Assembly (NCBI GenBank): GCA_023136775.1
Contig: JAGLQO010000018.1
Coordinates: forward strand, 20,452 to 84,451
DNA length: 64,000 nucleotides
Source: Candidatus Pacearchaeota archaeon
GTDB lineage: Archaea; Nanobdellota; Nanobdellia; Pacearchaeales; GW2011-AR1
Direction of reading: 5' to 3'
Shown: in pieces, positions 1 through 46,211 of the stretch
Layout of the letters: each line of letters starts with the position of its first letter
Position numbering within the stretch: position 1 is the stretch's first letter
The notes under the pieces: model-generated
Database searches by the model: none
The model's input: only the letters and a program-made list of their open reading frames with translations
Told to the model about the DNA's origin: nothing
Program-made: the position numbers and the translations under genes

Positions 1-3000
1 CTACTGGGGCTGTTGTATCAACATAAAATGTTTGATTTATTGTAGATGTAACTAAATTTGCATTATCAATACATGACACCGACCAATTATATTCTCCGTC
101 TAAAACACCTACTATACTAAAATCGAGTGATGCTCCTTGAATTATTGGTGTCGAATTTGTCTGATTGTATATCCCATTTATGTAAAGTGAACAATTTTCT
201 ATTTGATCATTGTCTGTGACATTGTATTCTAAATCTACACTACTAGAATCAAACCATGTTAAATCCGCAGTCAAAAGCTCTACTGTTGGTGGGGTGTCAG
301 ATACCGTGAAATTTCTTGTCTCACTAAAATTTAAATTTCCTGCATTGTCTTGACATGATATATTCCATAAGTGGTCTCCTAATCCCACTGTTTTTGTTAA
401 GTTTGTATAGCTTGAATTTATTGCCGAAAATCCTGTTTCGATTATTGCACCGTCCAATATTAAATCGCAAGTTAAATTTGAATCTAAGTTGTCTAGTGCT
501 GTGAAGTTAAAATTGACCGAAACCGAACCTAAAGATTCGTCAACTATTGGGTTATGTAAAATCATTTGTGGTAATATTGTGTCTATTGTGAATGTCCTTG
601 CTGTGGCGTCAGTTGCTGTTTCTCCTAATGTATCCGTTGTATTAACGGTCCAATTATAATTTCCGTCTAGTAGGGAAATTGTAAAATTATTTATTTGATT
701 ATTTATAATTATTGAAGCATTGGTCATGTTTTCTTGACCATTTAAAATTAATGTTGTATTGGCTATGTTATTATTTTCGTCGGACGCATTGTAAAATAAA
801 GTTACTTGACTCGTGTTGAATATATATGTGTCAACTGGATTTGTTAAATATATGTTCGGTGGCATATTTGAATCTTCAACTTCGATGTTTTGGGTGGTTG
901 TCCCTGTTGCACTCGAATACGTTGAAGTTGCGATACATCTTATGTCATTGAACGATGCGGCATTTCCCCTAAGTGTAAAATTTGTCTGGACTGCCGAGGA
1001 CACAGAACCGAGCGAATGCGGATTTGTTTCTCCTGTATTTAAAATCAAACTGCCTGATGAACCTATGTTTAGCCAATCGGTTCCGTTGTACCTTTGTATA
1101 TATGCGTTTGTATTTGGGCAATTTCCGACTGAACATGAAGCTTCACAGGTTACGTTTGTTGTGGATTCACGCGCAATACTAACGTTAGATGTTGGATAAA
1201 CTAGGTCTGTACTTAACGCACCTAAAACCGTGAAGGTCATAAGATTTACGTAAGCCCATCTGTCATCGTCCCATGTATGTGTAAAATCCAATGTAGATGT
1301 ATCTGAATTATAAACATTCAAAACCATTTTAATTCGGTCAGACTTTTTTAGAACTAAATCATATGCTGGGGAATTGCAAGTTCCGTCCCAATTTGCCGAG
1401 AGAGAACTCATTCTTGTTCCCGATGTAAAATCGTCACCTGATTGACAAATTAAGAAATTTCCTGAACTGTTTTCCACATAAAGTTTCCACGTTAAATATC
1501 CCACATTGCTTGTTGATACCGTTGTGGGTGCACTAAAATCTATAATTGTTGAACTTGGTATTATTGCTCCACCATTTCCTAGATATGGAGTTTTTGCGAT
1601 CGTGACTGTTGTAACCGCCGAAGCTGGTAACGTCATTGACACTGTATTTTCTGTTGCATCCCTAGAGTTTGCCAAACCTATATTTGCTGCAGATGTGAAG
1701 TCAATTGTTGAAGTTTCATAAAATCTATTTCCCCAGTTATATGTTTGCGGTCCTGACACATTGAGTTGTCTGGATTCTGAACTTGAGGTTAATCCTCCGT
1801 CGTCGCTACAATTTATGTACCATATATAAATTCCGTTGTCCAAATAAACTTCAAAAAATTGCAAAGTTCCCATTGCTATTGATGTATCTGTCCAGATTAT
1901 TTCTTCGTTTGCTATTAAAGAACATGAATCCACTCCTGAATTGTCTGTTGCATTATAGGAAAAATATAATGTGTTTGTCGTGTTTGTCGTTTGGTTCGCG
2001 GGACTAATGGAAGTTACTGTTGGAGGACTTGTGTCTATATCAAATACTACGTTATTTGATTCGTACATTGTCCCTAGCGTGTCGTTGCAATAAAATGTCA
2101 TATTGTGGGTCGTTGAAGAAAGTCCTATTTGAGTATAATAAAAGTAAGTTGAATTAAGGCTCGTCATTGTTACATTAGCTGCTCCATCTAAAGAATATGC
2201 ACACCAGCTTCCAGCGTCAGTTAGTGTTACATTGAAGTCAATTGTTGTTGTTGAATATGTTTGAGCTTTTGGGGAAATAATTGATAAAAAATCTACTGGA
2301 GCTTCACCTAATGCTATTACAAACCAATTTGTATTTTGAGTCTGACTACCTGTTCCCTTTTGAAATTGAATTGTAGTTGTATTCAATATTTTATTTGTTG
2401 TAAATGCATTAGCAAATGTTGTTCCTCCACCTGTACTTGTATGAGACTCTAAGGAAAATGATTTATTCAATTCTATTTGATTTATGTTAGCGTTAACTGC
2501 GGTTGCTCCCGCTACTGATGTTAATCCACTTTGAGTTGTAAATCTATTATTTTCTACAACAAACCATGATATTCCATGAGTTGCTGAACCCGTATTTTTG
2601 TAAAACTCTATGTTATCTGAGTCTGTAAAGTACCCTCGGATAAATGTTTCTTGAAGACTTGTTTGTCCTGCAATTTGACTAGAAAATGTCAGAAAACTTC
2701 TTGAAGTGTTAACCGTGTTTGTCAATGCTTGAGGAGAGGTCACTCCTGTACCAGATAAAAATCCCGACTGAATTTTAGAATCGTCCCACTCTATTGCTTG
2801 CCAATGAAATTCTCCAGTAGTTCCAGTTGTCCCTCTTGACATAGCAATCTGCGTTGCACTATTAAATTTACTCGACCAAAATCCCTGGACATTTTGACTA
2901 GTAGTTCCAGAATTTAATCTATTTGATATTGTTGCAAAACTTTCTGTTAAATTAATTTGTCTTATTGATGTCGTATCTGAAGAATCACCCGTTGAATATT

Positions 3001-6000
3001 CATTGCTTCCTCTTTGAACATATAAGTCTTGGCTTTCCACTACCGTCCATTCTATGTAGACATCTCCAGTGGATGAATACCTCCTGAAATTTATTTTATC
3101 TTCCATTAATTCTCCTAAAATTTGAATTTGATTAGGTCCACTTGATGCACTTCTAAAAGAGAAAAGTAAAAATGCTTTTGACAAATCTTGTGTTGGAAAT
3201 GTTATATTTACTTCACTGCTTCCGTCGGGCAAAATAGTCGTTCCCCTACTTACGTTTTCTGTTGTTCCTATATCAATTGAAAAAGAAACTGAATCAGAAC
3301 TAGCGGGTCCCACAATTCCTCCACAATAATAATCCACGTCATAATCTCCTTCTCTGAGGTATTTTTTATATGCGCTAAAATAAGTTGAATTAATTTGGGT
3401 CATTGATACGTTAGTTGCGCCATTAAGAGAATAACTACACCACGAAACTGGCTTGCTAGTATTAACTATAAAATTTAAATTACTGGTGTTGTATGTTTGT
3501 GCGAGTGGTTGGATTGCATTAATAATTAGAGGGGCTGAATCCACTGAGAAAAAATATTGTTCACTTGAATATTCTCCACCGTAAGTATTGTTACAATAAA
3601 ATGTCACATTGTGAGTTGTGTCAGATAATCCTGACTGACTATAATCAAAATTCTTACTGGTTACTTCATCCATTGTCGTATTGGCTGCTCCGTCCAAAGA
3701 AAACCAACAAGAATCTGAATCTATTAACGTCGAGACTTCAAAATTTACCGTTGAGCTACCATAAATTGTATTATTGATTGGGGCATCTACCTCCATCATA
3801 TTTAATATTTTTTCAGAATATAAAAAACCCGTACTTGAATTGAAAAATAAAAGCTCATAAGGTTCTGGTGTATGTTGCTGCTCTTCATCTCCGAATTGAT
3901 CTTCGTCAGAAAGTAAATATACAATATTAGAAGGAGCTGAATAATGGACTGTTGGAAAAACTCCATTAGTTCCGTCTACCCTTATTCCTGAGCCTAATGC
4001 GATACCCCCCTCATAGGACTGTGATAATGTTACAAAATAATTACTCATTGGATATGGGTCATTTTGTGAACCCGCAACATTATCATTTTCCCAGTAGGCC
4101 TCCCATGAATATCCCGTTACCCCATCTCCTGATGTCCCCGTATTGTCTCTGGTTTCTGAATTTGACCAGTCTGAATCCATCTCCCATGCGATATAACCAC
4201 CTTCCTCATTTTGAGTATGCAACTCACATGGTCTAATTTCTTCATCATTTTCCATCCCATTAAGACCAATTTCAATACAAGTCGTGTTCCATGTGTCTGA
4301 GTTTGTATTGGTACAGCCTCGAAGATATTGTGAAATTGGGTCTACGTCATTTGCTGTTTGAACTGCTGCTAAAACTAGAGGTTGAAAATCCCATGAATTT
4401 TGAAAAGGTCTGTGGTTGGCTGCATAAGTCCAATCAACTGGATTTGCACCACTACCACAGGCATCAACGTCCATTGTGAAATTTACAACCTCTACTTCCC
4501 TAACTGGAGTTCCTGCGTTGGAAACATTGTGAATTCCTTTTTCCATTGCTAACCAATATCCATTTATTCCTGTTGATGGGCAAGATGCGGCTTCGCTCCA
4601 CGAATCTGTTCTAATTTGAAACCCGTCTTTTGTTATTGCTCTAACTCTTGTGGTACAGGGGTTATCATCGTAATCATAACCATAATCTATTTGATGAACT
4701 ACCACTGGAACTTCTCTGAAAGAATGCTGAAAAGATACTGTGTTCCATGTAGCTGTTGGAATATCTTCTACAACTCCCCATTCCCCTATTGATTCATATT
4801 GAGTGGTGTCGACCAAAAATGTTGTATTTGAAGAATTGTATAGTCCAAATGTATCGTTGCAATAAATTTCTAAGCTGTACTCTCCTCCGCTTAATGATTT
4901 TATGTCTGAAAAAAATGTATCGTTAATTTTTGTCATTGTTACGTTTGCCGCACCGTCTAAAGAATATCCACACCAATCTGTTATTTTGTTTGTTGTTACG
5001 TTTATATAGATATTTGAAGTAGAATATGATTGCGGTGTTGGGGACACTATGTTTACCTCAATTGGAATTCCTGGATCAATAACCGATAGGCTAGAACTGT
5101 TCACCCATGTGCTATAATCTATTCCGTCATATCCTCTCATTGAACATGTCCAGTTGTCGCCATTAGTTGTGTTGGAACTTAGTAGTATCGCATTAAAGAA
5201 TGTGCCGTTTAAATATGAATTGTTGTAATCTATCGATAAATTTAGTACTTCATTTTTATACCACCTAATGGAGACGTTTATCGAATCTCCGTCTGGGTCG
5301 TGAAGTGTATCAAAGCAGTTTAAATCTTGTGTCTCTTTATTCGTCCCATCTGTTGAATTTATTTGAGGAGTTGGAATTGGAGGCATGTTAATAAAAATTT
5401 CTTTCTTAATTTCAAAACAATCTATATAGAAATCCTCTTGATTTGAATTTGCTTCTGTTGCGAAACGAACTGCAAAGTCTGATTGTAGTTCTGCTCCTGA
5501 AATTATACGTTCATAGTAAGTCCAATCACTTCCTGTACAAGCTCCTAAATCATAGGAGAATACGTCGTTGTGCCATGCTCCAGAATAATATTCATCATAA
5601 GAGAAATAGTCGTTTGCATCAAAACTTGAATCACATCTCCAGTAAAAACTTATATTCGCAGATTTTGCTCCGCTTAAATTAACTAATCCTGCATCCATTG
5701 TTATGTATTGTGTGGCGGATGCTGTACCATCTACGTGTGCAGCTGCACTGCCACAAATTTCTGCAGACTGAGTATTTCTATCCCATGCGTTTGTGTCTCT
5801 TGACCAATTTCCTGCAGCGTCATAATAATAAGGGCTTGTGCTTTCAAAACTATCGTAAAAAATCGAGCTATTAAACCAGGGATCTATTATTAAATCAAAC
5901 ATTATTGTCCCTCCTAAAATTAGTAGGTCGAAAGTATCTTGCATCGATTGTAAATTTGTTAGGAATATTTGATATTTCTTGTTTTCGTTAATTATGCCGA

Positions 6001-7189
6001 AGTCTGCTATTTTTTCAGTTCCATTTTTCTCATAGACTTCCACTGTTGCATTTGGGTCGCTACTTTTTGCGTAGATTGTAATATCATTTTTAGAAGTAAG
6101 GAGTTTTTCAAATGTTACTCTCGCATAATGTCCAGCTGTAATTTCTTGCCATATATCATCTTTCTTCGATACTGCTTCGTAAATGTCTTCTATGACTTGC
6201 CTATTTTCATCGAGATGTTGTGCGTGTGTTATTTCAATTATTATTTCAAAAGTCTGAGTTGAAAGATGGGGGACTGTCCATTCTATTTTATCCAGTAAGG
6301 AATTGTTGTTTGTGTCGTAGGCTTTGAATGGTAAAAATTTCTTTTCTTCTTTCCAATAAACATTTATTGAAGACTCTTTTTCGAAAGGTAATTCTTCTGT
6401 AAGATTTGTAAATGCTAAAACATTTTTATAATGTAAATCTGAAGAAATTTCTACTTCCTTTATTTTCTTTGAAATTATTTTTTCTTTTTTTATTGGGGCT
6501 GGAGTAATATATTCTATATTTGTATTTTCTGGGACCTGCAAAATTGCAATAGTTTTTTTCTTTTCTTCTATAACTAAATTTGCTAAGTTATCGGCTAAAG
6601 AATTTTTTATTTTGAAGTCTATTGAGGAGTTTTTTGAAGATATTAAAATATTTGTTGATATTTCTGGGATTTTTATTTGGATATTGTTTCCTGAGGCTAT
6701 TTCTTCTTTCCATTTTACATCTTCTCCTACTTTAATTTGATTTAATATTGAATTGGTTGGTGGTGGACAGTTAGATACATTGCTTTGTGATTCGTCTACA
6801 CTTTCGTCTGGTACTTGAATTTCAATTTCTTCTAGTGGAATTTCTACTGTTTTATATTTTGGAATATCTGCTTTATCTAAAACTTTGAATTCTATTTGCT
6901 TTGACGATTCATCGCCTTTGATATCCATTATATAATCGCCAATATAATCTGGCTTGAAAATGAAATAAGTTTTATTTGATTCGTAGAGAAATGTTTGCTC
7001 TGGAGTTTGGATTGTCATTATGTAATTGCCAATTTCTCCTATATCGACTTTTACTTTTTCACCTAAGGTATAGATGTCTTCTGGTGTTGCCGAAGTCAAA
7101 AGGATGAAGAAAAGTGACGTTGTTAAAACGAGAGCTAGCACTAGTCCCAACTTCGCTGCTCCCACTTTTAACATACATCTCTTGTTCAT
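1..7189 (-). CDS. Giant secreted adhesin-like surface protein, N-terminal 2396 codons only (C-terminus beyond the left window edge)
   Basis: Absent from the ORF track because no stop lies in the window. My reverse-strand read from ATG 7189-7187 (MNKRCMLKVGAAKLGLVLALVLTTSLFF, signal/anchor helix) stays open to position 1, and no other minus-strand ORF of 60 aa or more is reported in 1..7245. The N-terminal ~450 aa align with the 3608-aa protein (YWKEEKKFLPFKAYDTNNNSLLDKIEWTVPHLSTQTFEI vs YWKEESKYLDFQAYDTNNDTFLDQIEWIVPHLSNQTFEI). Repeated (W/C)xYSLDGAANVT modules and dense N-x-S/T sequons. Confidence 0.8.
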   Translation of the reverse strand, partial: MNKRCMLKVGAAKLGLVLALVLTTSLFFILLTSATPEDIYTLGEKVKVDIGEIGNYIMTIQTPEQTFLYESNKTYFIFKPDYIGDYIMDIKGDESSKQIEFKVLDKADIPKYKTVEIPLEEIEIQVPDESVDESQSNVSNCPPPTNSILNQIKVGEDVKWKEEIASGNNIQIKIPEISTNILISSKNSSIDFKIKNSLADNLANLVIEEKKKTIAILQVPENTNIEYITPAPIKKEKIISKKIKEVEISSDLHYKNVLAFTNLTEELPFEKESSINVYWKEEKKFLPFKAYDTNNNSLLDKIEWTVPHLSTQTFEIIIEITHAQHLDENRQVIEDIYEAVSKKDDIWQEITAGHYARVTFEKLLTSKNDITIYAKSSDPNATVEVYEKNGTEKIADFGIINENKKYQIFLTNLQSMQDTFDLLILGGTIMFDLIIDPWFNSSIFYDSFESTSPYYYDAAGNWSRDTNAWDRNTQSAEICGSAAAHVDGTASATQYITMDAGLVNLSGAKSANISFYWRCDSSFDANDYFSYDEYYSGAWHNDVFSYDLGACTGSDWTYYERIISGAELQSDFAVRFATEANSNQEDFYIDCFEIKKEIFINMPPIPTPQINSTDGTNKETQDLNCFDTLHDPDGDSINVSIRWYKNEVLNLSIDYNNSYLNGTFFNAILLSSNTTNGDNWTCSMRGYDGIDYSTWVNSSSLSVIDPGIPIEVNIVSPTPQSYSTSNIYINVTTNKITDWCGYSLDGAANVTMTKINDTFFSDIKSLSGGEYSLEIYCNDTFGLYNSSNTTFLVDTTQYESIGEWGVVEDIPTATWNTVSFQHSFREVPVVVHQIDYGYDYDDNPCTTRVRAITKDGFQIRTDSWSEAASCPSTGINGYWLAMEKGIHNVSNAGTPVREVEVVNFTMDVDACGSGANPVDWTYAANHRPFQNSWDFQPLVLAAVQTANDVDPISQYLRGCTNTNSDTWNTTCIEIGLNGMENDEEIRPCELHTQNEEGGYIAWEMDSDWSNSETRDNTGTSGDGVTGYSWEAYWENDNVAGSQNDPYPMSNYFVTLSQSYEGGIALGSGIRVDGTNGVFPTVHYSAPSNIVYLLSDEDQFGDEEQQHTPEPYELLFFNSSTGFLYSEKILNMMEVDAPINNTIYGSSTVNFEVSTLIDSDSCWFSLDGAANTTMDEVTSKNFDYSQSGLSDTTHNVTFYCNNTYGGEYSSEQYFFSVDSAPLIINAIQPLAQTYNTSNLNFIVNTSKPVSWCSYSLNGATNVSMTQINSTYFSAYKKYLREGDYDVDYYCGGIVGPASSDSVSFSIDIGTTENVSRGTTILPDGSSEVNITFPTQDLSKAFLLFSFRSASSGPNQIQILGELMEDKINFRRYSSTGDVYIEWTVVESQDLYVQRGSNEYSTGDSSDTTSIRQINLTESFATISNRLNSGTTSQNVQGFWSSKFNSATQIAMSRGTTGTTGEFHWQAIEWDDSKIQSGFLSGTGVTSPQALTNTVNTSRSFLTFSSQIAGQTSLQETFIRGYFTDSDNIEFYKNTGSATHGISWFVVENNRFTTQSGLTSVAGATAVNANINQIELNKSFSLESHTSTGGGTTFANAFTTNKILNTTTIQFQKGTGSQTQNTNWFVIALGEAPVDFLSIISPKAQTYSTTTIDFNVTLTDAGSWCAYSLDGAANVTMTSLNSTYFYYTQIGLSSTTHNMTFYCNDTLGTMYESNNVVFDIDTSPPTVTSISPANQTTNTTNTLYFSYNATDNSGVDSCSLIANEEIIWTDTSIAMGTLQFFEVYLDNGIYIWYINCSDDGGLTSSSESRQLNVSGPQTYNWGNRFYETSTIDFTSAANIGLANSRDATENTVSMTLPASAVTTVTIAKTPYLGNGGAIIPSSTIIDFSAPTTVSTSNVGYLTWKLYVENSSGNFLICQSGDDFTSGTRMSSLSANWDGTCNSPAYDLVLKKSDRIKMVLNVYNSDTSTLDFTHTWDDDRWAYVNLMTFTVLGALSTDLVYPTSNVSIARESTTNVTCEASCSVGNCPNTNAYIQRYNGTDWLNIGSSGSLILNTGETNPHSLGSVSSAVQTNFTLRGNAASFNDIRCIATSTYSSATGTTTQNIEVEDSNMPPNIYLTNPVDTYIFNTSQVTLFYNASDENNNIANTTLILNGQENMTNASIIINNQINNFTISLLDGNYNWTVNTTDTLGETATDATARTFTIDTILPQMILHNPIVDESLGSVSVNFNFTALDNLDSNLTCDLILDGAIIETGFSAINSSYTNLTKTVGLGDHLWNISCQDNAGNLNFSETRNFTVSDTPPTVELLTADLTWFDSSSVDLEYNVTDNDQIENCSLYINGIYNQTNSTPIIQGASLDFSIVGVLDGEYNWSVSCIDNANLVTSTINQTFYVDTTAPV

Positions 7190-7245: not shown

Positions 7246-7452
7246 TTATTTTATTTGCCAGAGGTTGATTCTGCCAACCCTGAAGCCTAATATTTTATCA
7301 TCGATTTGTAATTTTAGGCATCTTGTTTGTATTGAGTGCCAGGGTTTTTCTAGTTTTAAGGATATATCTTGTGTGGAAATAGGGTTTTGTTTTGTTTTGA
7401 TAAAAGTTAAAATTTCTTTTTTTAGCGGGTCTGTTTGTTGATTTATCACCAT
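7246..7452 (-). CDS. Small winged-helix DNA-binding protein (68 aa), upstream of and co-oriented with the giant gene
   Basis: ISTQDISLKLEKPWHSIQTRCLKLQIDDKILGFRVGRINLW fits a helix-turn-helix plus beta-wing pattern. Only 56 nt separate its stop from the ATG at 7189. Confidence 0.55.
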   Translation of the reverse strand: MVINQQTDPLKKEILTFIKTKQNPISTQDISLKLEKPWHSIQTRCLKLQIDDKILGFRVGRINLWQIK

Positions 7453-7588
7453 CTTGTTAATGTAATTTTGTGGGGATTTTTGTTTATAAATATTGTGATG
7501 TTTCGTATGATTTATGGTACGATAGATAGTGCGATTGGTCGCAGAATTTGTTGATGGATAAATGAAGATTCAAGATAGGGGAAGGAAT

Positions 7589-7824
7589 GCAAATTGGTCT
7601 CAAACGACATGATTCTGGTGAACCCGCTCGCGGATTTATAGAATTTGGTGGATTTAAGACAGGAGAAGGAAGACAATTTTTAGCTCACGGATTTACACGG
7701 ATACCTTCGGTATTCACGGATTCAAGGCAATGATTTTGGGAGTGGTTTTGAGTTTATTTGTTGGGGTGTTCTTCCATAAAAAATTGCGCCATCTTCGGAC
7801 GGCGCATTTCTTATGGAGTTTTTT
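7589..7824 (+). repeat. Composite intergenic element (modules C, B, A, then a T-run)
   Basis: C module 7589-7637 (GGTCTCAAACGACATG..CCGCTCGCGGATTT). B module 7683-7722 (GCTCACGGATTTACACGG-ATACCttcGGTAT-TCACGGATT). GGATTCAAGGCAATGATTTTGGGAGTGG linker. A hairpin 7771-7818, then T6 at 7819-7824. Confidence 0.9.
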
Positions 7825-7884
7825 ATTTGTTTGTAAAATGAATCCTATAGTTAGCTTTATTAATTTTGAAAGCTGTTTTTTATT

Positions 7885-8247
7885 ATGGCTATTGGCGGAA
7901 TTGGGCTTTTTGAAGATGTAATGCCAGAAGATTATTTGGAATTATCTAATGGGGTTATTGTGAAGAATTTGTCGGAGCTAGTGGATGCTTTGGGAAAAAT
8001 GGACAAAAATGACTTTGAACTTCATGTTACTAAATCTCGAAATGATTTTGCGGAATGGATATTAGAGGCGTATAATGACGAGAAGCTTACGAGGAAATTA
8101 TTGGGAGCTATTGATAAAGAAAAGAATTTAAGAATTTTGAAAGATGTTGTTAAGAATACTGAAAGTAAAAAAGTTAATAGGATTAATATGCCAAAAAACA
8201 AGAAAAGTATTTTGAAAAATTTGGAGGGTATTGATGGCGGGATGTAG
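7885..8247 (+). CDS. Small cytoplasmic protein made of the ~60-aa module also found at the C-termini of both HerA-like ATPases
   Basis: LELSNGVIVKNLSELVDALGKMDKNDFELHVTKSRNDFAEWILEA aligns with LTFDNGAMISSLAEIKDMLPTLDEDIFKLHVNEEKNEISDWLKEL (ATPase 1). AT-rich TATA-like stretch ~25 nt upstream. Alternative ATG at 7921. Confidence 0.6.
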   Translation: MAIGGIGLFEDVMPEDYLELSNGVIVKNLSELVDALGKMDKNDFELHVTKSRNDFAEWILEAYNDEKLTRKLLGAIDKEKNLRILKDVVKNTESKKVNRINMPKNKKSILKNLEGIDGGM

Positions 8248-10230: not shown

Positions 10231-10527
10231 AAATTTGCTCACGGCACCCTCACTAATTTATTTGATTAATTTTGTTTGTGATTATATATCTAATTTTGGG
10301 GATTATGCTGATTCAATGCAGGAAGACAAATTTGCTCGCAGATTTACACGGATACCTTCGGTATTCACGGATTTTGTTTTGGGAATTTTTCTTCCATGAA
10401 AAATCGTAGCATCTGCGGACGCCACGATGTTCTCATGGAGTTTATTGCTGAAGCGAGGCTAATGAGCGATTGTGTTGCTAAGCATATGGGAGCGAGAGTA
10501 AGGAGCGAGTGGGTAACTGAGCGACTC
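10231..10527 (+). repeat. Composite intergenic element (modules G, B, A, F)
   Basis: G 10231-10253 (AAATTTGCTCACGGCACCCTCAC, also at 30901). B 10334-10373. A hairpin 10391-10440 with a TGCG loop. Purine-rich GAGCGAG module F 10451-10527. Confidence 0.9.
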
Positions 10528-10561
10528 ATTAAATAATCGAACGCTAGTTCTAGAAAAAAAT

Positions 10562-10620
10562 AAAACAAAAGAAAGAATAACTCCCAAGAGGAGTAGGGTA
10601 GTTATTCTTTCTTTTGTTTG
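10562..10620 (-). terminator. Long perfect stem-loop ~75 nt downstream of 10694..11419
   Basis: AAACAAAAGAAAGAATAAC (left arm) and GTTATTCTTTCTTTTGTTT (right arm) form 19 contiguous base pairs around a 19-nt loop. Function as a terminator is inferred from position only. Confidence 0.4.
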
Positions 10621-10693
10621 TGATTTTGCCAGTTCAACGTGGCGTGTTTTTTGTAATAATAAAAATAATAATTTGTTTGGTTTGAAACCGTAT

Positions 10694-11419
10694 TTATTCT
10701 AGTTCAACGTAGAAGAAATAATCGGTTGTTTCTGTGTTGCCGTGTCCGTCTTCTAAAACTAACATTTGGAAGTCGTGAGTTATGGAATTGAAGCCATCTA
10801 CATCCTGCTCCAAAAGAGCTGCGAAAATTGGATTTCCACTTGCATCTGATAATAATACTTCTTCAAATACTCCTGGATTCTTATCTCCAGAACTATCAAA
10901 AACTTCTGTGCTCATACATGCAGTTGTCTCATTGAATTCTGTAGATCCTACTATAAAATCGGCATGGGCATTTAATATATATGTCTCAAATGTCTCATTG
11001 ATACCGTCTGCAGCATCATCAATATTCATTGTTGATTCTAGATCTGTACCATTTTCTGTCCAATTGAAACACTTAACACCTGTCCAATCTAGATTAAGCC
11101 CATTTGTTGAGGCAAAAACTTCTCCTTGAGGTGAAGCTAGTGACCAGTTGTACATTGGATTTCCTGCTGAATCTGATAATGTAATTGAACCAGAAACGTT
11201 ACCGTAGTAACCTTGCCAAGATTGTGTGATTGTTCGTCCTGTAATATCCAACTCTGTAACATTACCCGCTATTGCGGTATAATTTTTTGGACTGTCAGCA
11301 GCGAGTCTTGTTGAATTCTTATACGACACTTCATTAGCACCGTTTGGAATAGCAAGAGTCACTCCCAACGTGAATACAAGCATTAATGCAACCATTGCGA
11401 TTGTAAAAATTTTGTTCAT
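10694..11419 (-). CDS. Secreted protein, family shared with 13198..13962
   Basis: Signal peptide MNKIFTIAMVALMLVFTLGVTLA. Shared blocks are AGNVTE, TQSWQGYYGN, MYNWSLASPQGE, CFNWT and HDFQMLVLEDGHG...YFFYVELE at the C-terminus. Its start lies 1 nt after the stop of the ArsR-like gene. Confidence 0.8.
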   Translation of the reverse strand: MNKIFTIAMVALMLVFTLGVTLAIPNGANEVSYKNSTRLAADSPKNYTAIAGNVTELDITGRTITQSWQGYYGNVSGSITLSDSAGNPMYNWSLASPQGEVFASTNGLNLDWTGVKCFNWTENGTDLESTMNIDDAADGINETFETYILNAHADFIVGSTEFNETTACMSTEVFDSSGDKNPGVFEEVLLSDASGNPIFAALLEQDVDGFNSITHDFQMLVLEDGHGNTETTDYFFYVELE

Positions 11420-12633: not shown

Positions 12634-13121
12634 TTTTTAAAAATTATTTTTCCTTCTTTATCTATTTCGTTTTGAATTTTTTTTGGAAGTGATGAGAAAA
12701 TTTGAATATCAACGCCTTCCCTGGTTTCTCCTAATAGTCTTGCTCTGATTTTAGTTGGATTGAGTTTTGTTTTTTTTAATTTTATACAAATATCTATATC
12801 TGAAGAATTTATGTTTGTTTTCCGCGCATGACTCCCAAATAAAATAATTTCACTTACTTCTGATTCAAAATTTTCTAGAATTATCTTTTTGGTTTCCTCT
12901 ATTATCTTTTTTATTTCTTGGTTTTTTTTAAGACTAAATTCATTTTTATATTTTGAGATATTTTCAATTGCTTTCAACTTTTTTCGTATATCCCTAGATA
13001 ATCTTGTTGTTTCAGATGGAATTAATTTTCTTCCTAGAAGTTGCTTCTCAATTATTTCCAATTCCCTCTTGCCAAATAAAAGTCGTGCTTCTTGCAATTT
13101 AATAAACTTTAACAATGTCAT
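12630..13121 (-). CDS. mntA: Minimal nucleotidyltransferase antitoxin (MntA-like) with an N-terminal extension
   Basis: The G-S-x(9-13)-D-x-D signature is in ILFGSHARKTNINSSDIDICI. Paired with the HEPN gene. Confidence 0.8.
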   Translation of the reverse strand: MTLLKFIKLQEARLLFGKRELEIIEKQLLGRKLIPSETTRLSRDIRKKLKAIENISKYKNEFSLKKNQEIKKIIEETKKIILENFESEVSEIILFGSHARKTNINSSDIDICIKLKKTKLNPTKIRARLLGETREGVDIQIFSSLPKKIQNEIDKEGKIIFKK

Positions 13122-15115: not shown

Positions 15116-18100
15116 TTATTTTTTAGATGGAGATTTTTTCTTAGTCGTAGATTTAGTTGATGCTTTTGGTTTTGACGGAGAGGATTTTCCATCAAATGCT
15201 TCTAATATTTTTATCATATCTGCTTTGTTTATTGCTGGTTTTAATTTCGTAGCTAAACTTGGAGATAATTCTTTTAACCAATCTGATATTTCATTTTTTT
15301 CTTCGTTTACATGAAGTTTGAAAATATCTTCGTCCAATGTTGGAAGCATATCTTTAATTTCTGCAAGACTAGAAATCATCGCTCCATTGTCGAAAGTTAA
15401 TGAATTAAGTTGTTTATTATTTAGCAATTCCATTGGATCTTTTGCGTCTTCTTTTTCTTCACTTGCCTGTGCCTTTTCTTTTGATTCTGCTTTTGAATGC
15501 TCTTTTTTTGCTTCCGTAACTGACGCTTCAATATCTTCTAAGTCTGCTAATTCTATTTCTAACTTCTTTGGTTTTTTGCCCAACTTTTCCCATTGCTTAG
15601 TAATCCGCGGAACCAGTCCTTCAAGATAAATATCAACAACAGAAAAATTTCCGACCATCACTTTATCTTTTACTAATTTTAATTCCATTTTCAAATCGAA
15701 TACATCAATCTTCAAATTTTCTAGCTGCTTAATTTGATAGTCTAATTCATCTACTTGATCATTATATTTATTATACTTTTCTAATTCCTCGTCGGAAAGT
15801 CTTCTTGTATTATGGAGAATTGGTCTGAACTGAATAAAATAAGGAAGCCCTTTGTTGTACTCTGCATTTTGAAACATGGCAACTCCAACTTCTGATTTCA
15901 CTAAAGATTTCAAAAAACTTTCTCCGAATTTTGTTTTGATTCTTTCTAGGTCGCCTTCTTCTACCGTACGGGTCTGAACTTCAGTATTAATATTCGCTTT
16001 AATTTCTCCAACAAAATCGTTCATAACCTGTGAAATTAAAATTTGCCCTATTCCCCATTTACGAAATTCTCTGCAACCTCTTTCAATTTGCAAGAATCCT
16101 GCCCCCGTTCCACCAAACTTTGGAAGAAGTCGATGAACTTCATCGAATACCAAAAGGATTTTTAATTCTTGAGCTTCTTGAGGGTCGCTCTTAAAAACTT
16201 GTCTAATTGTATTTGCTACGAAGATGTCCATGTCTTTTGGTTGAAGTTTGTTTAATGTAAAAATTTGTATATGCCCTGGATCAAAGAATTTATTGATATT
16301 AATTATTTGACGAGCATCTTTTACGGCTCTAATGTTTCCAGGAAAACCCCTAGCCTCTGTTGTCTTCATTCCAAATTTTGAATAAAATGAAAACATTTTT
16401 TTGTCTTCACATTTTCTAAGCATCCCAGACCACTGGGCTGTTGGGTCGAATACAATTACACAAACTCCCTTTAGCAAGGCTTCTTCAATTATGACTTGTG
16501 CCGAAATGGATTTACCCATACCTGTTGCACCCGCGACAATCGTATGAACTTTTAATCTTTCTAGTTCAAGATACGCGGGCTTTTTTGATTCTGCAATTAA
16601 TCCTAACTTTGCTGTTTTTTCCCCTGGACCTGGAAGTGAATTAAAATCTACTCTAACGCTGTAACGTTCTTTCTTCGCCATATGCCGCTTATAGACAAAT
16701 ATGTTTAAAGCAATAAAACTAAGGAAAGAAATACCGACAAGATAAATCCAAACTTGAATTCCCAAGAAAGCATAAAGATAAATTGGTTGGACAACCTTAA
16801 ATGCCGTCGACGTTTTTGAAACTAGATTAAGATAAGTTGTCCTTACTTCTAAAGTGTATTCACCAATTGGGATTTCTTCTGGAAGTTGTATAGCTTCTAA
16901 AAGTGTTAAAGATGATGCGATTTCTGACTGCGTGTTTGTTTCTGAATAGACAATTGAATTATTTATTCCTTTTATTTTAGAATTAATATAAACTATATAG
17001 CCTTGATCACTTAGTAAATTTTGCAATGTTAATTTGTATTTTAATTCTTCGGATTTTTTAATTGAGTCTTCAAATAAATCCACTCTAATTAACATCGTTT
17101 CAATTGGCATTCTTCGCTCTACGATATCTATTGTTACTGGGATTTTTTGATTCAGCGAACCTGAAATTGTAATATTTCCTACATATCTCCCTATGTTTTC
17201 TGTCCCATAAAATGTCAATCCTATTTCTCCAAAAGAGTTTGATGGAATTGTTATTGAAGTTTGATCTACTGTTAAAATGTTAGTTAACTCTTGAGGCAAT
17301 GCAATATTGAGCGTCATTGTTCCACCAAAATTATAGATTCCAATTGACTCTTCGACAAATGTATTTTTTCTTACTTCCTTTTTTATTTCTTTTGTACTTA
17401 TCCAATAATCGTCCCCGTTCTTGACTGCTTGTTCTTTTATGTTTGAAATTTTTTTATCAGTGAAAGGTCCTGTTTCAAAATTCATGTCCGACTCTGAAAT
17501 CGCGGCTGCTAGTAAGGTAAAATTTACATCTAGATGGGCTGGCTTGTCTGAAAAATCTATTGTTTTTATTCCATTATCATAGCCTTGTTTAATTGCAAAA
17601 ATTGTCTGATTATTTGGAATCACCGAAGGGAAAATAGTGTAATAACCTTGAAGATTTGTTTGTGTTGAAATTCCTCCTATTGAAATTTTTACGTTGCTTA
17701 TTGGAACGCCTACCTCATCAGTTACGTAACCTTCAATATTTGTTATGATTATATCATCTACTCCTGGAGTCTCTGGTGGCAAAGTTATGTTTCTTTGTAT
17801 CATACTTTCATTTAGCGTTATATTCGCACTTGAAAATCTACTGTCGTAACCTGATTTTTCTGCTATAATGCTGTAATCTCCTTCTAGTAATTCCATTGTG
17901 AAATTATAAAGTCCTGTAGCGGTTGTATTTTGAATTGAGCCTACAAAAGTAACTACTGCATCTTCTATCGGATTTCCCATAATGTCTTTAATGTATCCAA
18001 ATATCGTTGCTGATACCGTATTTCCTATTCCGCCGCCCTCGGGGCATATGTCATTTGGGTCTGTGAAGAAATAATATGTTAGAGTTGTTGCCTCTGGGGT

Positions 18101-18799
18101 TGGAATTAACATTTGATAATTTACCGTCACGTCTTGGCTGTAACCTTTTTGCATCGATGAAACATGTGTTACGTAAACGTAATTTCCAAGGTCATCTTTT
18201 AAAATTCCTATGTCAAAAATTTCGTTATCTCCGTCCCATTTATGCGTATGTGTCGACGGAATGTTGGTTATATTTTGTGCTCCAAGCATTATGCTCATGT
18301 TATTTGTAAATGTATTTGATGAACAATAAATTTCTCCGCCGCAACCCATATATGCATCTAATTCAGAAGGTGTTAGTGGTTCTAATGTATCGAAATCTAT
18401 GGCGTCTGATGTTGATGCGTAAATTTCGTTTCCGTTTGGGTCTGATGTGTCCATGCAATCGAAAAATAAGTCTTGTCTTTTTATTTCATTTTCTAAATCT
18501 CCAGAAAGTTGTTCTGTGAATCCTGGGACTCTTAATGCTAGTCCATATATTCCGTTCCAATTGGGTGTTGGGAATCTTCTGAAAAGTGTCATGCTTGTTA
18601 TACTTCCGGCTTCGGCGTTGATATAGGTTGCATAGCCTGTTATTAGGTAGTGGGATGTTAGGAGAATTAATAAGATCGAGGTTGACAAAAGCGTTAAAAA
18701 AAGAAGAAAAAGTTCTATCTTTGTTGCTTCTTTTTCTTTCCATAATTCCCGTTTTGCAATCCTAGTCGCGGCTAGTCTAGATCTCCCAATCCTCTTCAT
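15116..18799 (-). CDS. Fusion protein: N-terminal anchor, ~650-aa ectodomain (two carboxypeptidase-regulatory-like repeats plus beta-sandwiches), TM helix, HerA/FtsK-superfamily P-loop ATPase, conserved C-terminal module, Lys/Ser/Pro tail
   Basis: Walker A VAGATGMGKS (DNA 16508-16537), FDPTAQW, Walker B LLVFDEVHRLLP and ILISQ. TM IYLYAFLGIQVWIYLVGISFLSFIALNIFVY. Ectodomain repeats GYIKDIMGNPIEDAVVTF..GLYNF..GDYSIIAEKSGYD and GYVTDEVGVPISNVKISI..GYYTI. Tail KSSPSKPKASTKSTTKKKSPSKK. Confidence 0.85.
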   Translation of the reverse strand: MKRIGRSRLAATRIAKRELWKEKEATKIELFLLFLTLLSTSILLILLTSHYLITGYATYINAEAGSITSMTLFRRFPTPNWNGIYGLALRVPGFTEQLSGDLENEIKRQDLFFDCMDTSDPNGNEIYASTSDAIDFDTLEPLTPSELDAYMGCGGEIYCSSNTFTNNMSIMLGAQNITNIPSTHTHKWDGDNEIFDIGILKDDLGNYVYVTHVSSMQKGYSQDVTVNYQMLIPTPEATTLTYYFFTDPNDICPEGGGIGNTVSATIFGYIKDIMGNPIEDAVVTFVGSIQNTTATGLYNFTMELLEGDYSIIAEKSGYDSRFSSANITLNESMIQRNITLPPETPGVDDIIITNIEGYVTDEVGVPISNVKISIGGISTQTNLQGYYTIFPSVIPNNQTIFAIKQGYDNGIKTIDFSDKPAHLDVNFTLLAAAISESDMNFETGPFTDKKISNIKEQAVKNGDDYWISTKEIKKEVRKNTFVEESIGIYNFGGTMTLNIALPQELTNILTVDQTSITIPSNSFGEIGLTFYGTENIGRYVGNITISGSLNQKIPVTIDIVERRMPIETMLIRVDLFEDSIKKSEELKYKLTLQNLLSDQGYIVYINSKIKGINNSIVYSETNTQSEIASSLTLLEAIQLPEEIPIGEYTLEVRTTYLNLVSKTSTAFKVVQPIYLYAFLGIQVWIYLVGISFLSFIALNIFVYKRHMAKKERYSVRVDFNSLPGPGEKTAKLGLIAESKKPAYLELERLKVHTIVAGATGMGKSISAQVIIEEALLKGVCVIVFDPTAQWSGMLRKCEDKKMFSFYSKFGMKTTEARGFPGNIRAVKDARQIININKFFDPGHIQIFTLNKLQPKDMDIFVANTIRQVFKSDPQEAQELKILLVFDEVHRLLPKFGGTGAGFLQIERGCREFRKWGIGQILISQVMNDFVGEIKANINTEVQTRTVEEGDLERIKTKFGESFLKSLVKSEVGVAMFQNAEYNKGLPYFIQFRPILHNTRRLSDEELEKYNKYNDQVDELDYQIKQLENLKIDVFDLKMELKLVKDKVMVGNFSVVDIYLEGLVPRITKQWEKLGKKPKKLEIELADLEDIEASVTEAKKEHSKAESKEKAQASEEKEDAKDPMELLNNKQLNSLTFDNGAMISSLAEIKDMLPTLDEDIFKLHVNEEKNEISDWLKELSPSLATKLKPAINKADMIKILEAFDGKSSPSKPKASTKSTTKKKSPSKK

Positions 18800-18892: not shown

Positions 18893-19160
18893 GGGGCAAA
18901 TTTTGCTCACGGATTTTGGGGATTCAAGACAAAAGGCGATTTTGCTCACGGATTACACGGACGCCTTTGGCGTTCACGGATTTAAGGCAATGATTTTTGG
19001 AGTGGGTTTTTTATTTTTGGGAAGTTCCTTCCATAAGAAATTATGACAATTTTTCCTTCGGAAAAAACGCCACAATTTCTTATGGAGTTTTTTGCTTGTT
19101 GGAGCGTGGTGAGGGGCGGGGGCGGCGCGTGAGTGAGAGAGTGTTAGCGAGTGAAGGAAC
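18893..19160 (+). repeat. Composite intergenic element (core, B, A, T-run, F)
   Basis: GCTCACGGATT core 18905-18915. B 18944-18982 (stem ACGCC/GGCGT). Long-form A hairpin 19028-19087 (TTTTCCTTCGGAAAAA centre), then T6 at 19088-19093. GC-rich F module 19101-19160. Confidence 0.9.
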
Positions 19161-21122: not shown

Positions 21123-21224
21123 TTTTTTAGATAAATTATAATGTTTTGATTGACGATTTGGTCAATAACTTTTTGTTGTTGGAAAAACAAATTGCTCGCG
21201 GATTGTGAGAATTTCGAAAATTCA

Positions 21225-27539: not shown

Positions 27540-27619
27540 GGGTTCTTTTGAAAGACTTTTTCAGTCCTAGTAAAAGACTATTCAAAGGACTTTAAATATG
27601 TTGACATTTTCGCGAATTT

Positions 27620-27856
27620 GATGGATTTAGGGCAGGAAGACAAAAGACAAATTGGCTCACGGATTATGGGGATTTTGGGGATTCAATACAGGGGAAGAAA
27701 GACAATTTTTGCTCACGGATTTTCACAGATGTCTTCGACATTCACGGATAGGGGCAATGATTTTGGAAATGATTTGATTTTGGCGACTTTCTTCCATGAG
27801 AAATTATAGCAATTTTTCCTTCGGAAAAAACGCTATAATTTCTCATTGAGTTTTTT
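27620..27856 (+). repeat. Composite intergenic element (core, B, A, T-run)
   Basis: Core 27655-27665. B 27711-27749 (stem ATGTC/GACAT). Long-form A hairpin 27791-27850, then T6 at 27851-27856. Confidence 0.9.
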
Positions 27857-27908
27857 ATTTGTGGTAATTAAGAGAATCAGATTAGGAATAATTGTATTTT
27901 ATAAAAAA

Positions 27909-30741: not shown

Positions 30742-30816
30742 TGTGATTATAGGGTTATTGCATTTAATAGTTTTTTCAATTTTGATTGTGGGTTATGAAG
30801 TTTAGGGGAGGGAGGA

Positions 30817-31015
30817 AAATTGGTCTCAAACGACATGGCTTTGGTGACCCCGCTCGCGTATTATGGGGATTTGATGAATTCAAGACAGAGGGAGGAGGGC
30901 AAATTGCTCGCGGCACCCTCACCATTTAAATTTTAATTTGGTTGGGGCATGCTAATCTGCACAGATGCTTCGCATTCACGAATTCAAGACGGGGGAAACA
31001 ATGATTTTTGGAGTG
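30817..31015 (+). repeat. Composite intergenic element (C, G, truncated B, linker; no A hairpin)
   Basis: C 30817-30862. G 30901-30922. B-like 30957-30984 (stem ATGC/GCAT). CAATGATTTTTGGAGTG 30999-31015. Confidence 0.85.
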
Positions 31016-31055
31016 TGGTTTTAAATTTGAAGTGAATGTAGTGCTATTCTGTTTA

Positions 31056-32964: not shown

Positions 32965-35900
32965 TTATTGCTGTGTCCACTCGGAATTTTGAGTAACTGA
33001 AATTTCATAACCTTCTTCCATTATTATATCTGCTCCGCCAAGATAATCTAAAGGTATCCAAGAGAATGGATTGGGGATTAATCCTTCGGAATTTTGCTCT
33101 TCGGAATTCCAACGAGTAATCGCATCTTCGTTTAAGATGCCCCCATTATCATCATCGGCTAATTCAATAGTTGTTGAAAATGTGGTTATGGCTGTCATGC
33201 TAATCCAATTTTTATTAAATCTCGCTCCAATTTCATGGACAAGATTTATTGTAACAGGGGTACTAACTATTCCAACTCCTGACCAATTAATATTTGCTGT
33301 TTCGCTTAAGTTTAGGAGGACTTCGTAACCTTCTCCAACTTTCAAATCGAAATTACAGGCTGTATTTGTACATGCAAAACTTTCTGGACAGCTAAAATTA
33401 TTACAACTAACTTGCTTTTGTGAAGTTGCGTTCAAACGACTAATGGAAGTAATGCCTGTCATCTCATTTAGCGTTTCGTTAGCATTTTTAATATAACTAA
33501 AATTTGTTGGGAATCCTATCCAATTTCTATTCGTAATGCTTCCTGCTGGAGTAACATTATTGTGTTTTAATTCATACACATGAACTCCAAAAGTTTTAGT
33601 GCTTAAATTGGTTAAAGTTGGATTCCATGCCTCAACCTTGTAAAATCTTCTTTTGTTTCCTGAAAATGTATTGTCTGTATAATTTGTATTGGCAGTTTCT
33701 GCTAAAAATTCAAAGCTGCTCGCGTTTGATGAATAATAAATATTATATTTAGATGTGTCATTTGTTTCGTTCCAACTAAAGAAAATATCGCCTGTCCCGT
33801 CATTTGTGGTTTGAGTTATGTTTGTAAAGATGGGTTCTGTTGGCGACAGATAAGAACTAAAACTTCTATTTGTCGTCATAAAACCATTTCCATAAATATC
33901 AAAACATTCAACTGACCAATTATAAAATCCACTTGTTCCTATGTCTACAGAAGAAAAACTGGTTGGATTTTCTGTATCAATATTATATAATGTTTGGTTT
34001 TTGTGCCAGCCTCCGTTCCATGTTCCAAAGAGAGAGCAGTTGCTCATGTTGCTTTCATCAGTTATTGTATAGCTAAATGGTCCTACTGTATGCGCTGTAT
34101 AATTATTTGTATCCAAGGGTGTAGTTAAATTTACAATTGGATTATTCAAGTCTTTAATTTCGATAGCGAACCAAGAAGTTGTTCCAGCTCCACTTGCAAG
34201 ACCTTTTTGTAAATCGATGGTGTTATTGTCATGTATAGAACTTGTGACATATGCGAAACCAAAATTATTAGGTAATCCGTTATTCTCATTAGAATGAATA
34301 TTAAATGACCTCTTAACATTAATTAAATCATAGTCCAAATCGATAGGCTGAGTATCTGTTGTTAATGAATGAGCATAATCACCTCTTTGTGTGTCAAACA
34401 TATCAGAGCTTACAACGAAATAATTAATGACTATATCTCCTGTGCTGCCCGTTCTAGAAAACTCTAAGTTAGAGGAGTTAGAGAAATTTCCTTTAACCAT
34501 TAGGTCATTAACATTTTCACCTCCGTATAACGAATGAGAAAAAATCAAAAATGAATTATTCAAATCTACTGCGTTAATTCCTTCACTAACGCTGCTGGAT
34601 GAATCACTAATATTAACACTTCCATTTTGAACATTGACTCCTTCCCAGCTCACGATTTGATAACTTAAAACTCCTGAAGCACTTCCACTTTCACGAATGA
34701 ATTCTATACTTGAGTTACTAGAAAACCTTCCAGTAAAAAATCCTTCGACATTTTTAGATGAATCACTGGAATTTAATTTAGTATTAACTATGATAAAACT
34801 GCTGCTTAAATTAACAGCTCCAATATTTGTACTTAAGTTTGTCTCGGTAGTAAAAGCAATGTCGCTTCTTTGAGTTTTGATTTTTGGACCACTAATTAAA
34901 GACCATTCAACCATTGCACCGCTAACGCTGTTATAATTTTCGAATCTTATATTCTCGCTTGTAGTAAAATCGCTAATGACTTGTAAAGTATCTGGTCTGT
35001 GATTCCCTGCCCTAGTTGAGTGCAAAATGAAGGACTTACTCATGTCTGTGATTCCAATTTCAACACCGTTTCCTCCATTCGTAAAGATGTCCCCGTGTAA
35101 AACTTTGTAGGTTGGAGTTTGGATGGAGCTTGAATTAACGGAGAATGTAACACTGCTACTATTCATATATCCAAGAGTATCGTTAACATACAAATCAAAA
35201 GTATGAGTCGTCTCGTCGACAAAATTAAAAACTTTTGCTCCACATCCTGGCAAGGTCACATTTGTAGCTCCGTCTAAACTATACCAGCAAGTGTCTAGAT
35301 GAACATCTTTTGCTATGTATTCTAATCTAATTCCATCATTATATGGATAAGTTACATTCTCTGGAGAAGTCAAAACCAAACTTGGATTTGTTGTATCAAT
35401 TAAAGTTATATTTCTTGTGGATGTTGTTCCAAAATTATTTGCCCAATCCCAAACTATTATGTCATAGAAGTATGTTTTGTTTTCTCCAGATGCTGTGAAA
35501 TTGATATTATATGTTCTAGAAAAATAAGTTGTCTCGTTAATTAATTGGCTATTGTTATTATATAATCTGTAGCTCATGTTTCTGAAGTTTGTTTCTATTA
35601 TGTCGGCAGAAGAATCAACATAGATCCAATCTCTTTCAAATTCTGCCCCATCGTCTTCGGTTGAATCTCCAAATCCAAGGGATGGCTTTGTTATATCTAG
35701 TGTTATTTTTCTTGTTGGCAAATTTGTACATTGCTTTGCTTTGTCACAGGTAGTTACATTGTAGAAATATTCTTCTTCGTTTAAATCTGTCCAATTAATT
35801 TGTCTTGTAGAGTTTGTAAAAAATGTGGAGTCAACTAATCCTGCGTTGTTGTACAATTTAAAAGTGATGTTTTGGAAATTGGTTTCTGTGACCGTTGTAT

Positions 35901-45954: not shown

Positions 45955-46126
45955 TCTTTCGTTGAGAAGTATTCGCTGACAGAAAATCTACATTTTATTA
46001 TTAGCATTTTGAACGTTTGTTATTTTTTGAAGAATTAAATGTGGATTATTTTTTAAGTATCTAGAAAGGCAATTTTGGCCGTGGATTACTCAAGACTTTG
46101 CAGGATTCAAGACAGGAAAGCAATTA

Positions 46127-46165: not shown

Positions 46166-46211
46166 CAAGACACTAGTCTGTATATTATTTTGTCTATTAA
46201 GTCATTGCCTT

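Follow-up and report, generated by a model that had tools for sequence, protein, structure and literature searches.

Composite intergenic repeats in a Pacearchaeota chromosome share their core with bacterial miniature inverted-repeat transposable elements

The stretch of DNA considered here (the window) comprises 64,000 nucleotides (nt) of contig JAGLQO010000018.1, part of a 198-kb metagenome scaffold from a Candidatus Pacearchaeota archaeon of the DPANN group, and about 82 kb of this one chromosome were inspected in all. The gene content of the window is archaeal, including HerA-like ATPases, a winged-helix HVO_A0114 domain, CARDB and giant surface proteins. NCBI assigns homologues of the protein of 393 amino acids, as well as an identical NT5C protein, to Candidatus Pacearchaeota. 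The spacers of the window are occupied by a family of modular repeats whose core recurs in the arms of bacterial miniature inverted-repeat transposable elements (MITEs). Ten spacers with arrays of repeating units and four solo copies of a long hairpin (A), all free of open reading frames (ORFs) inside, are found in the 64 kb, and 11 of the 13 spacers of at least 300 nt contain the core or hairpin A, so that the elements are short, non-coding, multicopy and intergenic, as MITEs are.

The repeating unit is about 40-57 nt long, occurs one to four times in tandem, and consists of a purine run, the motif GACAAWTT, the core GCTCRCGGATT, a variable stretch and GGATTYAAGRCA. A composite, about 170-250 nt in total, is made up of such units, one of them with a small hairpin (B), followed by a G/T-rich linker, hairpin A (47-61 nt) and a T-run. 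Module B is a repeating unit with three CACGGAT boxes, the second and third of which enclose a hairpin of 5-7 bp, while module C is a stretch of 30 nt between CAAATTG and GCTC that base-pairs with the following unit. That C might be an outer terminal repeat was considered and dropped, since its left flank is the usual purine-run junction and C is therefore an internal insert. In hairpin A an A-rich and a U-rich arm form the lower stem, and the GC-rich upper stem comes in two length forms.

The first composite may serve as reference. A lead of purine run plus CAAATTG (7572-7595), forming the junction that recurs before every core, precedes module C (7596-7625), of which further exact copies start at 30822 and 60801. 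There follow unit 1 (7626-7682; GCTCGCGGATT ... GGATTTAAGACA, a purine run and GACAATTTTTA), delimited by direct-repeat family D17, the core scan and the alignment; unit 2, which is module B (7683-7729; GCTCACGGATT plus the three CACGGAT boxes; family D7) and the first 19-26 nt of which equal the bacterial MITE arms; the G/T-rich linker (7730-7770; ATGATTTTGGGAGTGG...GGGGTGTT; families D8 and D10), homologous across composites; and, after hairpin A, a T6 run (7819-7824), all on the plus strand. Hairpin A itself (7771-7818), which is assigned to neither strand, has an A-tract arm, a GC-rich upper stem and a U-tract arm, folds best on the minus strand, and matches in its arms the box TTTCTYATGGAR of the putative replication origin discussed below.

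Seven further composites and one half composite lie on the plus strand. Composite 2 (10231-10445) has a variant core, GCTCACGGCACCCTCAC, at 10237, B at 10334-10372 and A at 10391-10440; composite 3 (18893-19093) has cores at 18905 and, within B, at 18944, then the linker, a long-form A (19028-19087) and T6; and composite 4 (27620-27856) has its core at 27655, B at 27711-27749, a long-form A at 27791-27850 and T6. Composite 5 (30798-31030) is without A and contains C at 30822, a core at 30852, a variant core at 30906 and a degenerate B at 30956, and composite 6 (43861-44032) has a core at 43905, the linker, A at 43978-44025 and a T-run. The left half of composite 7 (46060-46172) combines a degenerate unit with B (46127-46172); opposite to it, on the minus strand, lies the only inverted copy (46195-46255), a B unit plus linker start, which together with 46127-46172 forms a full palindrome of 125 nt. 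Composite 8 (59327-59400) consists of core and B only, and composite 9 (60738-60890), again without A, of B at 60743, C at 60801 and a core at 60831, then GGATTTAAGGCAATGATTTTGGAAGTGG. A lone plus-strand core, GCTCGCGGATT, is located in a convergent spacer (21194-21204), and an additional array of three units lies 770 nt past the end of the window (12837-12863 of the flanking locus L129). The variant units at 10237-10333 and 30906-30955 read GCTCRCGG and then CACCCTCAC plus an AT-rich stretch of about 45 nt, which resembles a further small insert within the unit. With respect to the solo A hairpins, likewise assigned to neither strand, one follows a plus-strand gene (48244-48291), a long-form copy (49180-49240) is situated between convergent genes, and so is a pair within 57484-57643 (57484-57530 and 57596-57643). 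Ahead of the first of these hairpins and of the first member of the pair there is another module, D (AAAAATCCACAC...GATTTTAGATTCC...GGGAATTTNTTTNAAATTCCCG; about 48085-48243 and 57375-57483), which lies 3' of large plus-strand genes and has no Rfam match.

The repetition is far in excess of chance: with at most one mismatch, GCTCRCGGATT occurs 19 times in the 64 kb, where 0.63 matches are expected, and none of 100 shuffles reaches 19. All nine spacers in which the initial annotation of this DNA had seen the same modules do carry them, and they are linked by the direct-repeat families D7-D10, D12, D14, D17 and D18. The modules are not freely shuffled, however, as the multiple alignment of the copies starting at 7589, 10231, 18893, 27620 and 43861 gives one arrangement (optional C, one plain unit, B unit, homologous G/T-rich linker, hairpin A, T-run), and the copy at 30817 conforms to it up to and including the linker; the common order and the homologous linker indicate that the composite was copied whole. 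The usual order proposed earlier (C or core, B, A, T-run) holds for these five copies, as do its two exceptions, the swap of B and C at 60743 and the lack of A at 30817, but A is also absent from the copies at 46101, 59332 and 60743. Similarly, the description as a plus-strand family is correct for 18 of the 19 cores but not for the one at 46241, in the inverted copy. Counted by locus, 11 arrays are on the plus and one is on the minus strand, and for the A hairpins the ratio is nine to none. Finally, the elements had been thought to sit in divergent, convergent and tandem spacers alike, whereas eight of nine unit arrays have a minus-strand gene starting next to them, the one example from a convergent spacer being the solitary 11-mer at 21194. 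The orientation bias nevertheless goes with the strand of the chromosome rather than with the adjacent gene, because only one of seven plus-strand genes has a mirrored array and the arrays in a Nanoarchaeota metagenome-assembled genome (MAG) follow gene ends; a promoter-linked orientation rule, to which plus-strand arrays in eight of 11 spacers upstream of minus-strand genes would conform, was rejected on the same observations.

Comparison with relatives shows that at least one composite is an insertion. In three relatives the local gene order is kept, with protein identities to the window of 75% (L126), 54% (L127) and 57% (L128), the conserved order being a giant protein, a protein of 636/650 amino acids (aa), a SpoIIM-like gene (in L126 and L127), an ORF of 51-55 aa and a protein of 388-393 aa. 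None of the three contains the core, a CACGGAT array, an A arm or module C, and blastn searches with the modules were blank as well; L130, L131 and, in its right part, L133 lack the modules too. In the window, 369 nt (27540-27908) separate the SpoIIM-like gene from the small ORF, compared with 112 nt for L126 and 86 nt for L127. All three share a conserved block directly ahead of the small ORF, and the composite accounts for the surplus of about 270 nt in the window. From this comparison of orthologous spacers it follows that composite 4 was inserted in the lineage of the window, at a place upstream of the conserved promoter region of the neighbouring gene and not in its leader.

The 19-26 nt core GCTCACGGATTTACACGGA, in turn, recurs without a change in short palindromic elements of bacteria and of a Nanoarchaeota MAG, as their subterminal repeats phased at 10 bp. 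A scan with the 19-mer GCTCRCGGATTTWCACRGA, in which each species was represented by one genome, returned at least 114 loci, and most of the non-coding ones are arms of palindromes of 50-230 nt. Among the matches listed, to which the following counts refer, the intergenic ones come from Anaerolineales and Caldilineaceae (Chloroflexota), Cloacimonadota, Armatimonadota, Spirochaetia, Bacteroidota and the one Nanoarchaeota MAG, whereas matches from Comamonadaceae and some others fall within conserved genes and were discarded as chance; a Bacteroides copy was found separately. In the bacterial elements two or three CACGGAT boxes at a spacing of 10 nt make up an arm, with the motif in its outer portion, and the arm usually has an inverted counterpart 50-230 nt away; the clusters comprise 30 palindromic and 40 single-arm cases. 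The elements of the Anaerolineales are about 250 nt long with inverted ends of about 60 nt (CTAGCTACCYGACACTTTTAGAAAACA followed by the arm), and they are flanked by 9-bp target duplications that are clean at six loci (AATTAAGAT, ATTCGCGGC, ATATATCTG, AAATCTCGA, AAAGCAAAT and ATTCGGTAA). A Caldilineaceae subfamily has the related inverted repeat CTGGTTGACTGACAAATTTAAC and, at four loci, duplications of about 9 bp (8-10 readable). With their long terminal inverted repeats and 9-bp target duplications, the Chloroflexota elements are true MITEs, which, given the size of the duplications and the 5'-CT termini, we presume to belong to an IS4-like DDE family.

The bacterial copies have unremarkable neighbouring genes of many kinds, with 157 Pfam families and no transposase among them. 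Small nuclease genes of the PDDEXK_3 family (PF13366, 'GxxExxY') are present in the bacterial loci, and three of four are nested between CACGGAT palindromes (L114, 2751-3409; L116, 960-1569; L063, 2545-3358); by analogy with the transposase genes (RAYTs) situated between repetitive extragenic palindromes (REPs), this suggests the nuclease as a possible partner enzyme. A BLAST search of plasmids and phages with the consensus palindrome yielded two unannotated Bacteroides matches and no phage, and in 241 million metagenome records the archaeal-type unit had a single true match (L123), three others being chance matches in coding DNA.

The family might therefore best be regarded, with a probability of roughly 0.55, as MITE-derived, lineage-specific mosaic selfish DNA that resides in spacers and carries terminator-like hairpins, and not as a conserved small-RNA gene. 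It is called MITE-derived and not a MITE because the window copies lack inverted ends and a target duplication is not demonstrable. MITE-derived DNA would accordingly have entered this archaeal lineage, where copies might have multiplied by transposition in trans together with local tandem or inverted duplication of units, and the repeats would have persisted in the spacers afterwards; hairpin A plus T6, once inserted, would stop or insulate transcription between the neighbouring genes. The likeness to MITEs consists in the identity of GCTCACGGATTTACACGGA with the Chloroflexota subterminal repeats and in the short, non-coding, multicopy and intergenic character of both without an internal transposase. 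They differ in that the copies of the window form one-directional tandem arrays, fused to a private linker, A and C, in an archaeal host. MITE-like mosaics were among the candidates of the initial annotation, which had also held that a match to a known MITE with inverted repeats and duplications would speak against a family of RNA genes; such a match exists for the core, though the copies in the window, one palindrome apart, have no inverted ends and show no recognisable duplications.

A number of points weigh against a derivation from MITEs. Except for 46127-46251, the composites of the window have no terminal inverted repeats but direct arrays, and no target duplications are recognisable at their borders, the empty sites in L126 and L127 being too diverged to show one. 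No transposase was found in the window, nor, in a search of the at least 114 loci, between or beside the arms. Moreover, 11 of 12 arrays and all nine A hairpins point in the same direction, which is unexpected for a cut-and-paste DDE element. Mobility in this genome is deduced from one presence/absence comparison, with relatives too diverged for exact junctions, and only about 26 nt (TAGCTCACGGATTTACACGGATAC) are common to the archaeal and bacterial elements, while this genome alone has A, C, the linker and D.

In their architecture the composites also recall the BOX elements of Streptococcus pneumoniae and the mosaics of REPs (bacterial interspersed mosaic elements, BIMEs) of enterobacteria, which likewise consist of few short modules in variable number and order, are confined to spacers, rich in hairpins, often located at gene ends and able to act on transcripts. 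There is, however, no sequence relation, and those elements are bacterial and occur in both orientations, whereas the present family is strand-biased and linked to the MITE arms of several phyla. In the literature, searched by sequence strings and by topic (MITEs with DPANN, Chloroflexi or Bacteroides; GxxExxY/PDDEXK_3), no description was found, and neither the window nor 18 related loci gave a gathering-level Rfam match, in agreement with the earlier remark that this is not a described family; at E-values of up to 10 (for 7400-8000) and up to 1 (for 48030-48345) Rfam matches were at chance level only (E 0.8-5).

The family may also be connected with replication. About 3.6 kb past the right end of the window, a spacer of 477 nt lies upstream of the cdc6/orc1 and PolD genes (15626-16102 of L129, equal to 6161-6637 of the 20.6-kb locus L133) and contains an extremely AT-rich stretch between the inverted boxes GTTTCTCATGGAAAG-T6 and A6-GTTCCATAAGAAAC, as well as a third box with GGGGT after it. 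As canonical origin boxes (TTTCCAGTGGAAAT...GGGGG) occupy the corresponding place in the relative L131, which has the same gene order, this spacer is, on sequence grounds, a putative replication origin. The entire window lies to its left, with most genes running leftwards, away from it; GC skew has no switch at this site and is dominated by the coding strand, so that it was not used as a replication marker. The 12-mer TTTCTYATGGAR occurs exactly three times in L133 (6280, 6430 and 6539), each time in this spacer, as the inverted boxes around the AT-rich stretch. In the window there are 21 matches as compared to 3.4 expected, 18 of them being both arms of the nine A hairpins, and the identity between the A arms and the boxes continues into the flanking T/A run. 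Relatives carry such boxes at the origin only, and no elements were found in the 9 kb to the right of the putative origin.

Viewed as archaeal origin recognition boxes (ORBs) or mini-ORBs, the A arms (TTCCATRAGAAAT / ATTTCTYATGGAR) correspond to the inverted boxes upstream of the organism's own cdc6 and agree with the canonical TTCCAGTGGAAAT at ten of 13 positions. In contrast to ORBs, A is scattered at roughly one copy per 7 kb, forms a paired hairpin and is absent from relatives; furthermore, its copies are 4-60 kb distant from cdc6 and surround a GC-rich stem in place of the AT-rich stretch of an unwinding element. A may be a copied origin box or may just resemble one, and this likeness is the most unusual trait of the family. 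Between the end of the window and the putative origin there is a tRNA-Ser (CGA) on the minus strand (L133, 5251-5334), and a bacterial-type DNA polymerase III alpha gene (PHP, DNA_pol3_alpha, HHH_6; L133, 14703-17843) is found about 600 nt downstream of the archaeal gene for the PolD large subunit, with one small ORF between them.

It is on this similarity that the alternative of DNA sites for replication or chromosome-organising proteins is based, an idea touched upon in the initial annotation as clustered sites for a genome-architecture protein. The A arms would be extra Orc1/Cdc6 boxes, the stem, once folded, would restore a single duplex origin box, the CACGGAT arrays, with their boxes 10 nt apart, would bind a second protein, and polarity would be kept relative to the origin. 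The restriction of TTTCTYATGGAR in L133 to the spacer upstream of cdc6, the match of the A arms beyond the box itself, and the canonical boxes at the same place in L131 are consistent with such a role, as are the location of every copy to the left of the putative origin and the nearly uniform orientation; if forks arrive from the right-hand origin, the strand on which A folds more strongly, the minus strand, would be the lagging-strand template. However, relatives with canonical origin boxes manage without dispersed copies, newly inserted DNA would hardly serve as an essential site, compensatory changes in the arms favour a hairpin over two independent duplex boxes, and the GC skew does not switch at the putative origin, so that this function appears unlikely, even though the phasing of the boxes and the likeness of the A arms to the putative origin stand. 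Somewhat more doubtful still is a variant according to which a mobile family shared by bacteria and DPANN archaea picked up the host's origin box and came to lie in a polar arrangement relative to the origin. Folded A on the lagging-strand template might then rebuild a duplex box, and the copies would be dispersed, polar landing sites for Orc1/Cdc6 or fork-handling sites and neither junk nor terminators.

With respect to RNA structure, the composite folds no better than its shuffles when read as plus-strand RNA (z = -1.2), in contrast to the minus strand (z = -3.7), and for each of the nine A hairpins the minus-strand fold has the lower energy, with a mean of -28.1 as against -18.3 kcal/mol. 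In the minus-strand folds of A, 174 pairs are of the Watson-Crick type and 26 are G·U, without any A·C mismatch, whereas on the plus strand there are no G·U pairs and the same positions become A·C mismatches, which affect every copy. The G·U positions vary among the copies, with G on the arm adjoining the T-run in 25 of 26 cases, and the A-for-G changes lengthen the minus-strand U-tract. Both hairpins are maintained with compensatory changes: in the alignment of the nine A copies 99.3% of the cells are paired, four pairs have changed on both sides, and none of 500 shuffles reaches the score, and for B 95.7% are paired and three pairs have changed on both sides. B has one fixed G·U on the plus strand, which it slightly favours, and on that strand both A and B have UUCG or UGCG loops.

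In its succession of A-tract, GC-rich hairpin and U-tract, A has the shape of a two-way terminator. Like intrinsic bidirectional terminators, copies are found after plus-strand genes and between convergent genes, although A, at 20-26 bp, exceeds the usual length and is a sequence repeat; as a rule, oligo-T suffices for termination in archaea. On the minus strand, the terminator-like sites called within A by a pattern scan consist of the upper stem followed by AUUUUUUAUGG, while on the plus strand the entire hairpin precedes T6, T-runs after A being confined to this strand. An unrelated hairpin plus T-run on the minus strand (10560-10660) lies just downstream of the gene at 10694-11419, and to judge from it, hairpin-plus-T terminators seem to be in general use in this archaeon.

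The minus-strand preference in z-score, G·U pairs, folding energy and terminator-like sites, and the location of eight of nine arrays upstream of a minus-strand gene start, would all suit RNA elements within leftward transcripts (3' untranslated, intercistronic or leader regions), with A as terminator or stabiliser and with C/U-rich runs resembling anti-Shine-Dalgarno sequences as regulators. Yet the one spacer open to comparison (27540-27908) has the composite ahead of the downstream gene's conserved promoter block and outside that gene's leader, four of the nine A hairpins have a plus-strand gene start and not a minus-strand gene end at their right, the elements are missing in relatives, and G·T pairs are tolerated in single-stranded DNA too; we consider this explanation distinctly improbable.

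Transposition as single-stranded DNA would dispense with inverted repeats and target duplications, neither of which is recognisable in the window copies. An element derived from IS200/IS605 (palindrome-associated transposable element, PATE) or of the REP/RAYT kind would insert into the lagging-strand template and hence be oriented by replication, in line with the bias of 11:1 for arrays and 9:0 for A, the strand-specific folding, the hairpins B and A near both ends, and the nesting of three of four bacterial PDDEXK_3 genes between palindromes, reminiscent of RAYT genes between REPs. PATEs and REPs (or their paired form, REPINs) are hairpin repeats without target duplications that likewise fold in a strand-specific manner and are biased in orientation. 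Against such a mechanism, the 64-kb window and the 18 kb beyond it contain no TnpA, TnpB, RAYT or Y1/HUH transposase, the window has no PDDEXK_3 gene, the family has no GTAG motif, the borders show no conserved target tetranucleotide, A and B are unrelated in sequence, and the 9-bp duplications of the bacterial relatives point to a DDE enzyme, all of which makes it a still fainter prospect. Protein sites, minus-strand RNA and single-strand-DNA transposition are alternatives of lower weight than the derivation from MITEs.

The main idea of the initial annotation, independently transcribed structured plus-strand small RNAs of about 200-240 nt ending at A plus the U-tract, is very unlikely to be correct: it can draw on the T-runs after A, the UUCG or UGCG loops, the constant module order and the plus-strand G·U of B, but the modules are absent from three syntenic relatives, which the annotation itself had named as an outcome that would count against it, the plus-strand fold does not exceed that of shuffles and has A·C mismatches in every A, no promoter-like motif (TATA/BRE) is conserved at a fixed distance on reading the upstream sequence, Rfam gives no real match, and the copies at 30817, 46101, 59332 and 60743 have no terminator. 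Some further candidates were dropped by eye, namely sponge-like GGA repeats for CsrA (the host is archaeal and the arrays occur in arms of bacterial mobile elements), C/D-box small RNAs (no D box), integron attC sites (no R'/R'' GTTRRRY), and parS, DnaA box and dif sites, the resemblance to these three being only partial.

Repeats of other kinds are present in the window as well. Between 59560 and 60700, direct repeats of GATTGTGCGAAC(Y)WTTT and of CTCACWTTTTYCAC, four copies each, are located in long spacers around a small zinc-finger gene, beside a XerC/D-like integrase gene (58402-59226), and may mark an integrated element or recombination site. Iteron-like direct repeats, GGTGTTTGGACGGGTGTT, lie at 61700-61940, upstream of the gene at 61934-62587. 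HerA/VirB4-like ATPases are encoded in two paralogous clusters (15116-18799 and 50064-52508), which have DNA blocks of 72-74% identity in common (15264-15787 and 50269-50792). The gene for a protein of 3608 aa (32965-43791, minus strand) contains tandem domain repeats, diverged from each other, whose periods are 285, 579 and 585 nt (35700-42500), and a minus-strand ORF running off the left end (1-7189) codes for another giant surface-type protein.

DPANN genomes are very small and tightly packed, and a recent burst of repeats that constitutes most of the long intergenic DNA is therefore unexpected here; no description of such a burst in DPANN archaea was found in the literature searched. For annotation this implies some caution, as repeats of this type are not to be labelled as small-RNA genes. 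As the core agrees base for base with MITE arms in at least five bacterial phyla, the family would be a rare case of a small mobile family that has crossed the boundary between bacteria and archaea, and the shared core offers a handle for locating the transposase. Finally, the identity of the A arms with the boxes of the putative origin, together with the one-way orientation of the copies beside it, provides a testable link between selfish repeats and archaeal replication.

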